Origin: a virus
DNA: 64,000 nt
Virus record (IMG/VR): IMGVR_UViG_3300046794_000123
Location: 1 to 64,000 of that record
Direction: 5' to 3' (one strand)
The position numbers and the translations under genes are program-made. The notes under the pieces are model-generated. The model worked only from the letters and a program-made list of their open reading frames with translations, searched no databases and was not told the origin of the DNA. This document shows positions 41,923 through 47,835 of this stretch, piece by piece (position 1 is the stretch's first letter; each line of letters begins with the position of its first letter).

Positions 41923-41987
41923 CCTTCGCTGCCGCTCAGGCTCGTTCTCGCGTTTGGGTGAGATACCTCTCAGGAACCAAGGAAACC

Positions 41988-42290
41988 ATGAACCAAGGAA
42001 AGAAGGTGGCATTCGTCACCAAGGCTCAACTCGTCCGTGCTGAAGACATCTGGATCGGTGATGAACTATATGTAGGCAAGTTCGTGCTGCGTGCAGTGAT
42101 GGTCGCAGACAAACCCGAAGCACGAGTTCACGAGAATCAACACCGTGTCTTTCAGGCTGGTGAGGATGTCCGTACATCGTTCCTCATTCGGGTCGACATC
42201 GAGAAGAACGAGTTCGAGACCATGAACACCATCTACAAGGTGGTGCCCGAAGCACAGGTCGATGTGTACCGCATGACCAACCCGTTCTGA
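41988..42290 (+). CDS. Hypothetical protein
   Basis: RBS; VRTS...FETMNTIY motif common in phage proteins. Confidence 0.65.
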   Translation: MNQGKKVAFVTKAQLVRAEDIWIGDELYVGKFVLRAVMVADKPEARVHENQHRVFQAGEDVRTSFLIRVDIEKNEFETMNTIYKVVPEAQVDVYRMTNPF

Positions 42291-44214: not shown

Positions 44215-44403
44215 ATGAGCAACGCACACGTGAAAGAGGACTTCATCCTCGAATCGGCCTATGGCCACAAGATCATGAGCTTCCCTACTGCTGAGCAAGC
44301 ACGTGAGTGGGCACAGCAGCGTCGTGAGAAAGCCAAGGGTGTGATCCCTGCTGTACGCCTGGTCAAGAAGACTGTCCTCGAAGAAGAGCTGGGCGTCGTC
44401 TGA
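44215..44403 (+). CDS. Hypothetical protein
   Basis: 62 aa ORF in operon. Confidence 0.55.
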   Translation: MSNAHVKEDFILESAYGHKIMSFPTAEQAREWAQQRREKAKGVIPAVRLVKKTVLEEELGVV

Positions 44404-44433
44404 ACCAAGTAACCAAGCTTCCAAGGAACCAAG

Positions 44434-44601
44434 ATGAGCACGAAGAAGTGCTGCCCTCATTGCGGCAGTGAACGCATCCTGCGTGATGCGTGGACCAAGT
44501 GGGACGGCACCGAATGGGTAGTCCATGACGTGCTGGACAACTGCGTCTGCAACGAATGCGGTGCGGACTTCAATGACGACGAGATCGAGGATCAAACGTG
44601 A
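44434..44601 (+). CDS. Zn-ribbon protein (55 aa)
   Basis: CPHC...CNEC; RBS; overlaps RNAP1 start. Confidence 0.6.
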   Translation: MSTKKCCPHCGSERILRDAWTKWDGTEWVVHDVLDNCVCNECGADFNDDEIEDQT

Positions 44602-45625: not shown

Positions 45626-45894
45626 AAACCACCTGGCGTCATCCGGGCTACGATGCCCTCAATGAGAAGAGCAAGCCTGTCGTCGTGAAGACGTATTCGA
45701 GACCTGGAGTGAGTCCCGATCCGCAGGTCTCGGTAGGCTGCACCATGCGCAACTTCACCACGCTGGAGCTGCTCGACGATGGCACGCTGCAAGTGCGAGA
45801 TCGTGATCTCGACAAGGCAGTCAACCTAGGCCGAGCCAAGGAAGCAATGGAGGCCATGGCCTACTCCATGAACATGCTGAAGATCCACTTCTAA
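45622..45894 (+). CDS. Hypothetical protein
   Basis: ATGA overlap, RBS. Confidence 0.55.
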   Translation: MKTTWRHPGYDALNEKSKPVVVKTYSRPGVSPDPQVSVGCTMRNFTTLELLDDGTLQVRDRDLDKAVNLGRAKEAMEAMAYSMNMLKIHF

Positions 45895-46014
45895 CCAAGG
45901 AACGAGGGAGACAAGGAAAAGTCCTTCCTTGGTTCCCTCCCTCCTTCATTCGCGGGAGGCTTGCATCCCTCCAAGAATGGTTTACCGTATACGGTTGAAC
46001 CAACCTTCTTGGAG
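45893..46014 (+). promoter_or_regulatory. Putative centromere/operator and sigma70 promoter of the par operon
   Basis: Inverted array of 4-bp boxes (AACC AAGG AACG AGGG AGAC AAGG / CCTT CCTT GGTT CCCT CCCT CCTT); TTGCAT-16-TACCGT; IR CTCCAAGAA...TTCTTGGAG around palindrome ACCGTATACGGT. Confidence 0.6.
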
Positions 46015-46019
46015 TTCAG

Positions 46020-46664
46020 ATGAGAACAATCGTCTTCTCCTGCCTGAAAGGCGGGAGTGGCAAAACCACGCATTCAGCCCACTTCGCAGTGGCGCTGGAA
46101 GCCATGGGCAAAGGTCCAGTAGTCACTATGGACCTCGATCCGCAAGGATCTCTCTCAGCCTGGTGGAATGACCGCAAGGCTGAGACACCCCAGTTCGCCA
46201 TGGTCGAGAACGTAGCGCACCTGGCCAAGAAGCATGTCGAGCTCACCAATGCCGGCTACCAGTGGTGCGTGATCGATACGCCACCGCAGGACCACGAGAT
46301 CAACCGCACAGCCATTCGTCTGGCTGATCTGGTGGTTATTCCGGCCAAGCATTCTCCGCATGACATCCGGGCTGCCGAGAGCACGGTGGATCTATGCGAG
46401 CAAGAGAAGAAGAAGTTCTTCTTCCTGCTCAATGAGACCAACGGCAAGTCGGTCTCGCTGGCTGCTACCCGTAAGCTTGCCTCGATGGGGCCGGTGATTC
46501 CACACGCCATCCCCAAGCTCAATGGCTACTGGGAGTCGATGATCGACGGCCGTACCTTTCAGGAAGTAAACAAGGGGACCGGTGCAATCATCATTGATGA
46601 CGTAGCCAGCTTCCTTATCAGCCAGTTCGAGAAGCAGCCGAAGAAGGAGAAGGCTCATGTCTAA
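46020..46664 (+). CDS. parA: Type Ib ParA partition ATPase
   Basis: Deviant Walker A KGGSGKTT, DLDPQGS, VIDTPP; 214 aa with no N-terminal HTH. Confidence 0.95.
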   Translation: MRTIVFSCLKGGSGKTTHSAHFAVALEAMGKGPVVTMDLDPQGSLSAWWNDRKAETPQFAMVENVAHLAKKHVELTNAGYQWCVIDTPPQDHEINRTAIRLADLVVIPAKHSPHDIRAAESTVDLCEQEKKKFFFLLNETNGKSVSLAATRKLASMGPVIPHAIPKLNGYWESMIDGRTFQEVNKGTGAIIIDDVASFLISQFEKQPKKEKAHV

Positions 46665-47010
46665 GCCATCACTCGACTCACTCGTCACCCGTAAGGGCAG
46701 TGCTGCGCCTGCCGCCTTGGAACCGCCTGCAATCGAGCAAGCAAGCAAGGAGCCAAGGAAGGAAGTAACCAAGGAGGCATCCAAGGAACCCTCCAACCAA
46801 GGAGCCAGTGAAGGAAGGAGACGTGCTTGGCACCAACCCGGCCAGGAGGAGTGGAAGAAGACGAACTATGAGATGCCGCTGCGTGTGCAGACCAAGCTCA
46901 AGGAGATGAAGAATTGGGGTTACATCCCCAATGTCTACAAGTTCGTGGCTGAGGTGGTCGAGAAAGAGATCGACAAGGTCATTGCCAAGGCCGAGAAGGA
47001 GGGCTACTGA
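46657..47010 (+). CDS. ParG-like ribbon-helix-helix centromere-binding protein
   Basis: Overlaps parA; disordered N-term, then WKKTNYEMP (strand)-LRVQTKLKEMK (helix)-VYKFVAEVVEKEI (helix). Confidence 0.7.
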   Translation: MSKPSLDSLVTRKGSAAPAALEPPAIEQASKEPRKEVTKEASKEPSNQGASEGRRRAWHQPGQEEWKKTNYEMPLRVQTKLKEMKNWGYIPNVYKFVAEVVEKEIDKVIAKAEKEGY

Positions 47011-47011
47011 C

Positions 47012-47650
47012 GTGAGCGTACCCGAGCTATTCGATGACGAGCCAGAGAAGATACAGCAGCTGGAGCTATTCAAGGCTGAGACTCGCTGGTTCCATGTCTT
47101 CAAATCCATGATCGCCAGCGGTGATGTGGCCAAAATGGGGCCGTATGCCTTCACCGTCTATTCGGTGATCAAGGCCCATACCAGCTTCAGCAAGGGCCAC
47201 AGCTTCCCGGAGATCTCCACCATCGTGGAGGAGTCGGGCATCAGCAAGGCACAGGTGCATCGAGCTCTCGATGTACTGGAGGAACTGGGTTACGTGCGCA
47301 GGGGCAAGAAGCCCAGCGGACGAGGGAACCTCTACATCTTCCGTGAGAAGGTGGACATCGAGGACAAGCAGGGCAACCATGTGGCTGATGCCTCATGGGA
47401 TTACCTGCCGCTCGGTGTCAGCTCTGCCATCGCTGAGCTGAAGCATGTCAAAATGACTGGTGACTTTAGCGGAGCCAAGATCGTCCAGATCGAGAACCTG
47501 ACTGTCAACGTGAACACAGCGAACGACAGTTCGATTCAGATCAACATTCAGACGCTTATGGACAACATGGAAATGCTGCCCAAGGAGCTGAAAGAGATAT
47601 TGGTTAGACGATTAGCAGAGATGCAGTTGAAGTCTCCCACTGAGACTTGA
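47012..47650 (+). CDS. Winged-HTH putative plasmid replication initiator (Rep)
   Basis: HTH_36-like SFPEISTIVEESGISKAQVHRALDVLEELGYV; QLELF clamp motif; directly followed by iterons and DnaA box. Confidence 0.7.
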   Translation: MSVPELFDDEPEKIQQLELFKAETRWFHVFKSMIASGDVAKMGPYAFTVYSVIKAHTSFSKGHSFPEISTIVEESGISKAQVHRALDVLEELGYVRRGKKPSGRGNLYIFREKVDIEDKQGNHVADASWDYLPLGVSSAIAELKHVKMTGDFSGAKIVQIENLTVNVNTANDSSIQINIQTLMDNMEMLPKELKEILVRRLAEMQLKSPTET

Positions 47651-47835
47651 AACGTAGGTCTCACACTGAGACGTATCCAAGAGAGACTGAACAACTCCCT
47701 TCAAGTCTCAGGCTGAGACTCGAAACCGGGGTTCAGGTCTCACACAGAGTCACTAATAAGATAAGACTTGTTTACTAAGTAAACCCAGAGCATCGAAGAC
47801 TTATCCACACTTTCAGTGGCTAACCCTGTGAACAA
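47632..47835. repeat. Putative plasmid replication origin (iterons, AT-rich IR, DnaA boxes)
   Basis: GTCTC-N5-GAGAC at 47632, 47658, 47705 with degenerate copies at 47673 and 47737; GTTTACT-A-AGTAAAC 47770-84; TTATCCACA 47801-09; inverted near-box at 47827-35. Confidence 0.78.

Follow-up and report, generated by a model that had tools for sequence, protein, structure and literature searches.

We analyzed the first 64 kb of a 78.5-kb virus record of IMG/VR (IMGVR_UViG_3300046794_000123, positions 1 to 64,000; this whole 64,000-nucleotide stretch is referred to below as the window), in which a plasmid-type partition cassette carries a periodic array of short DNA motifs inside one of its genes. 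The first gene of the cassette, on the plus strand at 46020–46664, encodes a small ParA-type Walker ATPase of 214 amino acids, which scored above the cut-offs of the Pfam models AAA_31, MipZ, VirC1, and CbiA, matched the ParA-like PHROG 164 (E-value 4e-33), and reached 127.6 bits against NCBIfam ParA_partition, under its cut-off of 180. The second gene, on the same strand at 46657–47010, encodes a protein of 117 amino acids, hereafter the partner; its ATG at 46657 gives it an overlap of 8 nucleotides with the end of parA (stop codon at 46662–46664). A small Walker-type ParA that lacks an N-terminal DNA-binding domain and a small partner gene directly downstream of it are the features of type Ib partition, to which the cassette is assigned by architecture, with a partner that by sequence falls outside Pfam ParG. 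The DNA of relatives was taken from IMG/VR records through a related-locus search; these loci are numbered L002 onwards, and W denotes the locus of the window itself. L002, L003, and L046 are N4-like loci. The order of parA followed by the partner gene is common to the relatives examined, with the two genes about 160 nucleotides apart in L002 and with a different ParA in L016 and L048.

The array occupies positions 46739–46818 on the plus strand, within the open reading frame (ORF) 46657–47010, and encodes the linker in the middle of the partner (...QASKEPRKEVTKEASKEPSNQGASEGRRR...). A preliminary description, made from the letters alone, had listed 20 consecutive tetramers here, and these match the DNA letter for letter over the 80 bases. 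Eight of the 20 are exact copies of AAGG, all in a single register modulo 4, while no other 80 nucleotides of the window contain more than four AAGG (300 in the 64,000 nucleotides). In the best register, 89% of the positions fit the pattern WWSS (two letters A or T followed by two letters G or C), and the Fourier power of the array was 10.0 at period 4 versus 0.21 at period 3. When period 4 was scanned along the window, the linker array ranked first with a score of 11.45 (window mean 0.81, standard deviation 0.55). The longer word CCAAGGA occurs four times, at 46753, 46769, 46781, and 46797, with spacings of 16, 12, and 16 nucleotides, and is read in all three codon phases (as PR, as TKE or SKE, and as NQG). 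Tandem Repeats Finder (TRF) returned weak repeats of 12 and 16 nucleotides only and did not report the period-4 array, in which the longest perfect tetramer run is AAGGAAGG, two units long. A phase-variable tetranucleotide repeat, as found at contingency loci, was ruled out, since no single tetramer forms a long uninterrupted run.

The linker array is not accounted for by chance or by codon structure. Three period-4 statistics were used, namely Fourier power, the WWSS fit, and a motif-agnostic register statistic that accepts any 4-mer in any register. Under a synonymous null, in which the peptide was held constant and codons were drawn at the usage of the window, each of them was matched in 0 of 20,000 resamplings, and the same count (0 of 20,000) was obtained for each with shuffles of codon order. 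In 200,000 synonymous draws at least eight AAGG appeared with a frequency of 1e-5, and the frequency of at least four CCAAGGA with the peptide fixed was 2.65e-4. The preliminary description had held that a period of 4 is not produced by codon structure, and this is right for one half of the AAGG copies: four of the eight arise from a four-residue KExx repeat (12 nucleotides) that is compatible with codon structure, whereas the remaining four require locally unusual codons (AGG, CAA-GGA, GAA-GGA, GGA-AGG), AGG, CAA, and GGA standing at 7%, 21%, and 12% in the codon usage of the window. The skew of linker codons toward the motif extends over 13 loci. Arginine was encoded by AGR in 32 of 48 cases in the linkers and in 39 of 138 cases in the rest of parA and the partner gene; for glycine, GGA was used in 12 of 17 versus 39 of 262 cases, and for glutamine CAA in 14 of 15 versus 18 of 122, the "rest" of L002 in these sums wrongly containing about 160 nucleotides of intergenic DNA read in frame.

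A second array with the same tetramer vocabulary (AACC AAGG ... TTCC TTGG) lies in non-coding DNA upstream of parA, at 45893–45946. It gave the second highest period-4 score of the window (5.36 at 45891) and the second highest WWSS score of the genome, and its two arms (45897–45918 and 45925–45946) are inverted and 82% complementary. This upstream array is kept in the relatives, where its motif co-varies with that of the linker, and in several of them it extends to the ribosome-binding site of parA. Core-to-core spacings in the linkers were 8, 16, 12, and 16 nucleotides in W, 8, 12, and 12 in L022, 8, 24, and 12 in L021, and 8 and 8 in L005. Copies in reverse orientation upstream of parA were located at −97, −85, −73, −61, and −13 in L022, at −126, −114, and −106 in L017, and at −68, −48, −40, and −16 in L021, where these four are all the upstream copies. 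All core spacings, in coding and non-coding arrays alike, are multiples of 4. Since the non-coding arrays share this spacing, the 4-nucleotide register is a property of the DNA and not of translation.

The likeness of the two arrays could also be read at the level of RNA, with the purine-rich linker mRNA pairing with complementary copies in the leader or upstream region and thereby controlling translation or stability. An upstream pyrimidine tract at 45922–45951 is indeed 74–86% complementary to 46739–46788 over 21–27 nucleotides, and the four upstream copies of L021 are all the reverse complement of the linker copies. Nevertheless, most upstream arrays (those of W, L004, L012, L017, and L022) carry both orientations, which suits the reading of double-stranded DNA; a strict 4-nucleotide register would be meaningless for an RNA duplex; and extra arrays such as the one at 44403–44434 are oriented like the linker. 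We therefore regard RNA pairing as quite unlikely.

Comparison among the relatives revealed that the two arrays change their motif together. In each genome, the dominant word of the linker is also the dominant word upstream of parA, and this word differs between clades. Occurrences were counted in the linker and in the 200 nucleotides upstream of parA for W, L002–L005, L011, L012, L017, L019, L021, and L022. The word CAAGGA was present 2–5 times in the linker and 1–4 times upstream in W, L002–L005, L011, L012, and L019, and was absent from both regions in L017, L021, and L022. CAAGAA took its place in L017 (three copies in the linker, four upstream) and L022 (four and four), and CTAGAA was found in L021 only (three and three). 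L039 and L046 likewise belong to the CAAGGA class. These words are concentrated in the arrays: six of the seven copies of CTAGAAA in the 26.6-kb record of L021, and eight of the 12 copies of CAAGAAA in the 42.6-kb record of L022, lie within the two arrays. The partners of L021 and L022 are sister proteins (support 100/99), and their motif differs by one base in both arrays. L017 does not group with L022, and hence the tree requires at least three motif switches. A motif-agnostic period-4 scan of 13 loci pointed the same way, as the linker and the upstream region gave the two strongest signals in nine of them; in L002, L003, and L046 both were in the top three to four, beside further arrays that abut start codons. 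Retention of the 4-bp periodicity despite protein divergence, which the preliminary description had proposed as a check, was seen in coding and non-coding arrays at partner identities down to 37–40%, L016 being the exception.

These patterns bear on whether the array is neutral low-complexity DNA, that is, a degenerate tetranucleotide repeat produced by replication slippage in a tolerant linker, with the upstream likeness resulting from a purine-rich, Shine-Dalgarno-like composition. Several traits would fit such an origin: indels between relatives come in 4-nucleotide units, linker length varies freely, the repeats recovered by TRF are weak and of 12 and 16 nucleotides only, and AAGGA resembles a Shine-Dalgarno sequence, similar strings standing before several start codons. 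However, a process acting on one array cannot switch the motif three times jointly in two arrays about 800 bp apart. Moreover, CTAGAAA and CAAGAAA are unlike a Shine-Dalgarno sequence, and the loci that carry them have a separate GGAG or GGAGG before parA. The register is kept across all clades, and perfect runs of at most two units mean that no active microsatellite is present. Neutral slippage is accordingly an improbable account of the two arrays.

The motif also proved independent of the reading frame. Within each of the linkers of W, L002–L005, L007, L011, L014, L039, and L046, the AAGG copies keep one register modulo 4 while occupying mixed codon positions. Between W and L004, indels of +4 and −16 nucleotides preserve the tetramer register, and the frame is shifted between them; CTCCAACCAAGG is translated as PSNQG in W and as LQPR in L004. 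Altogether, the linkers share 119 12-mers whose codon phase differs from one genome to another. The amino acids of the linker change with the motif, with KE, PR, and QG encoded by CAAGGA, QE, SR, and KK by CAAGAA, and LE and SR by CTAGAA. In its third phase CTAGAAA would be read as a TAG stop, and by our reading the linker of L021 makes use of just two phases.

Arrays of this type are not confined to the cassette. The third strongest period-4 signal of the window (4.26 at 44401; WWSS score fourth highest in the genome) comes from an intergenic array at 44403–44434 (AACC AAGT AACC AAGC TTCC AAGG AACC AAG) that runs into an ATG at 44434. In the genome-wide WWSS scan, the linker, upstream, and 44401 arrays were all within the top four. 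The ATG at the end of this third array opens a gene for a CxxC...CxxC protein of 55 amino acids (44434–44601). Similar arrays precede the starts of small genes in the N4-like relatives (L002 around 1673, L003 around 1441 and 1905, L046 around 297), and shorter AACCAAGGAA strings with high WWSS scores abut start codons at 41971–42005, 51228–51250, and, beyond the window, genome positions 64802–64845. The AACCAAGGAA strings could serve the same factor as additional sites, or could simply be the ribosome-binding context of this phage. In the clade of the window a Shine-Dalgarno or other translational role is possible, given the AAGGA arrays directly before the starts at 44403, 41971, 51228, and genome position 64802. 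As a general explanation, Shine-Dalgarno pairing or ribosome pausing was rejected, since the design with two arrays is also present in the CAAGAAA and CTAGAAA clades, whose motifs are not Shine-Dalgarno-like.

If the boxes are sites for a protein, the question is which protein reads them. Across the motif classes ParA is 74–83% identical (82–83% for L021 and L022 compared with the window), while the identity of the partner falls to 40% in L021 and 37% in L022. The type of helix-turn-helix (HTH) gene varies independently of the motif: in L012 and L019 the partner and motif are the same and the HTH genes differ, in L022 a W-type HTH gene is combined with another motif, and the HTH gene of L021 resembles those of L011 and L014. 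The partner is the sole component that diverges with the sites, and for this reason we infer that it is the likely reader of the boxes. That the boxes are real DNA sites read instead by ParA, by the HTH/Rep-like protein encoded downstream, or by a protein of the host is very unlikely. The HTH protein has in its favor that it is a clear DNA binder by its Pfam match, but the conservation of ParA over all three motif classes, the uncoupling of HTH gene type and motif (L012/L019 and L022), the differing phage backbones that flank the cassette among relatives (records of 26–78 kb), and the 37–40% identity of the partner, which alone diverges with the motif, all argue against a reader of that kind. 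A conserved ParA, a diverged partner, and a different motif, as observed in L021 and L022 relative to the window, are also the pattern expected when partition specificity undergoes incompatibility-type divergence while the motor is conserved.

The family to which the partner belongs is small. A word-indexed search retrieved 21 proteins, and 21 representatives were recovered when 1.84 billion sequences were searched exhaustively with a profile; one further, truncated locus was found by a metagenome scan and none by a genome scan. All members share an N-terminal MSK..L(D/S)..(R/K)KG peptide (MSKPSLD..RKG in W), then a linker whose length varies, and at the C-terminus a conserved region of about 55 residues, which in W covers residues ~63–117 (46843–47007). 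A search with tblastn against PLSDB plasmids and INPHARED phages gave no match to the partner. Likewise, Pfam ParG (PF09274) matched neither the protein at E ≤ 0.1 nor the 21 family members or the six-frame translation of the genome at E ≤ 10. The gene had been called parG-like in the preliminary description, which is borne out by its architecture and not by its sequence, as neither Pfam ParG nor RHH_1 matched even at E ≤ 10. For residues ~63–117, structure neighbours in the ESM Atlas were RHH_1, ParD, or Antitox_RHH in six of ten rows and DUF5388 in one, and it is because of these neighbours alone that we propose a candidate ribbon-helix-helix domain as the probable fold of this region.

Residues of the predicted beta-strand were considered as markers of specificity and discarded: KTNYEM and KANYEV versus KVNYEV do not track CAAGGA versus CAAGAA, since L039 has KVNFEV with CAAGGA, and the change from N to G (KVGYEV) is confined to the CTAGAA clade, a single lineage. 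Two loci carry family members in other surroundings. In L048 (IMGVR_UViG_3300046526_000053, 132–1433), a truncated member of 74 amino acids without the N-terminal peptide and linker follows a different ParA and a 124-amino acid partner that looks like a canonical ribbon-helix-helix protein. An alignment of the family with that canonical partner by hhalign covered only the six residues KGxAxP at the N-terminus of the partner, with a probability of 0.3%. In L016 (IMGVR_UViG_3300037418_000334, 1912–3189), the family member stands beside a different ParA of 215 amino acids.

Taking these lines of evidence together, we propose, with a probability of about 70%, that the tract at 46739–46818 is a putative second binding-site array for the partner protein, situated inside the partner's own linker. 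The proposal of the preliminary description that a site array doubles here as a flexible linker is thereby strengthened by the non-coding array upstream, the joint switching of the motif, the conserved 4-nucleotide register, and the mixed codon phases. In the mechanism that we envisage, the boxes keep strictly to a 4-bp register, most of their cores being separated by 8, 12, or 16 bp, and would be read by the 117-amino acid partner of ParA as a putative centromere-binding protein. The upstream array of mixed orientation would act as an operator or first centromere site, and the linker array of mostly direct repeats, about 800 bp downstream, as the second site. The N-terminal peptide of the partner would contact ParA while its C-terminal domain reads the 4-bp boxes as dimers, and partner dimers would coat both arrays and present them to ParA, much as at parH and OF of TP228 or at parC1 and parC2 of pB171. 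The linker would be a sensible place for the second array, as nowhere else in the gene is constraint at the protein level so low. Since 8 bp do not divide into whole codons, the frame changes from one box to the next, and consequently the linker residues (KE, PR, QG) would be largely a by-product of the DNA motif. The sequences themselves show the periodic array, its excess over the codon-based nulls, its likeness to the upstream array, and the switching of both arrays in step among relatives; the reader protein, its fold, and a centromere rather than a regulatory function are in this proposal what we infer from their comparison.

Several observations weigh against this proposal. A member of the family can do without the array, since L016 has a periodic array neither in the linker nor upstream. 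There are only three motif classes, within a small family in which many loci are near-copies. A scan with the sigma-70 consensus found no promoter in 45700–47100, and because of this the operator role of the upstream array has no anchor. The partner matched nothing in Pfam, NCBIfam, PHROGs, or the sequences of the Protein Data Bank (PDB), the genome gave no hit to the ParG, RHH_1, and DUF5388 models at E ≤ 10, and the Atlas comparison gave template modelling (TM) scores of 0.36–0.47 by query with a low-confidence model (predicted local distance difference test, pLDDT, 0.47). The uniform orientation of the upstream copies in L021 and the AAGGA arrays that directly precede start codons are to be counted on the same side.

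Beyond the proposal of a second site array, a broader scenario can be put forward tentatively, at somewhat worse than even odds. In it, the linker would be a passenger of the DNA site, rewritten at each switch of specificity (from KE/QG/PR with CAAGGA, to QE/KK/SR with CAAGAA, to LE/SR with CTAGAA). The intragenic array would function as a centromere in the way of parC2 or parH, maybe also as a roadblock inside the gene of the partner that sets the ratio of ParA to partner, and through the arrays before start codons in the N4-like loci the expression of phage genes would become linked to the partition protein. The comparative pattern is one in which a DNA motif dictates the amino acids of a disordered linker, and it would be a clear case from nature in which a code at the DNA level and one at the protein level overlap, as well as a caution against treating low-complexity linkers purely as protein features. 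The three natural variants of specificity (CAAGGA, CAAGAA, and CTAGAA) provide material for studying how a protein and its sites diverge together into incompatibility groups. The cassette may also bear on the inheritance of N4-like phages that carry such a plasmid-type system.

Further features surround the cassette. Directly after the partner gene, also on the plus strand, lies a gene for an HTH_36 or replication-initiator-like protein (47012–47650; Pfam HTH_36, E-value 2.4e-09; PHROG families of replication initiation). Iteron-like repeats, direct and inverted and of the AGGTCTCACACTGAG and GTCTC-N5-GAGAC types, are located at 47630–47749, outside the array, and are mentioned as context only; they lie partly over and partly past the 3' end of the HTH/Rep-like gene and may constitute an origin of plasmid type. 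Between the upstream array and parA there is a perfect 12-bp palindrome, ACCGTATACGGT (45984–45995), of which this is the sole exact copy in the window. It is conserved in L002 and L003 and may be a putative site for the HTH protein. L016, which has a W-type HTH gene, shows CCGTATGG repeats upstream of its different ParA. The window also includes an ORF of 3,616 amino acids. No match was obtained with blastn against the INPHARED phages, and relatives of ParA on Acidiphilium and Xanthomonas plasmids are only 42–44% identical, with small partners that are unnamed or not listed.

The partition sites of small-ParA systems are normally sought in adjacent non-coding DNA, whereas here the second cluster would lie out of sight, within the very gene that encodes the binding protein. 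We found no description of a partition-site array that forms the linker of its own binding protein in open-access text. When intragenic centromere arrays of ribbon-helix-helix systems were looked for in the same literature, only the single sites of SegB or work on parS of HTH-type ParB turned up. In the open-access literature no N4-like phage with a ParA array was found, the matches to the word "ParA" in PMC10654107 being unrelated.

Partition sites inside genes do have precedents. In Bacillus subtilis, a parS site lies inside spo0J (parB), the gene of its own binding protein, and the plasmid-prophage N15 has dispersed centromere sites near phage genes. Both systems differ from the present one in using HTH-type ParB or SopB proteins and single palindromes, and they are not known to have a periodic array or a tie to a linker. 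Archaeal SegB is a ribbon-helix-helix centromere-binding protein that partners the ParA-type SegA, and its sites mapped by chromatin immunoprecipitation are mostly intragenic (83.7% and 82.85%), some of them within segAB (PMC12284271). SegB is comparable in having intragenic partition sites, including sites within its own operon, but these are single 13-bp palindromes scattered on the chromosome and form no tandem linker array.

The arrangement of the two clusters recalls par2 of plasmid pB171. Its site clusters parC1 and parC2 contain repeats that are read by the small partner. The gene order there is parC1-parA-parB-parC2 (PMC4270457). In both cases parA is flanked by two clusters, one lying upstream and the other past the gene. 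The parC2 cluster is however non-coding and follows parB, whereas the second cluster described here is coding. The closest likeness in the boxes themselves is with the partition system of TP228, in which ParG reads degenerate 4-bp boxes with an 8-bp period in either orientation, the parH site consisting mostly of direct repeats and the promoter-adjacent OF site being mixed and doubling as a centromere (PMC3130281). The likeness to ParF/ParG comprises a small ParA-type ATPase and, after it, a small partner whose N-terminal part is flexible, and the likeness to parH and OF comprises a 4/8-bp register of orientation-tolerant boxes in one mostly direct and one mixed array. On the other hand, the partner described here has no Pfam ParG sequence match. 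Both TP228 arrays are non-coding and upstream and their 4-bp spacers are AT-rich, whereas in the virus the tetramers are of the WWSS type (AAGG, AACC, AAGC, TTCC, TTGG) and the direct-repeat array lies within the linker of the partner.

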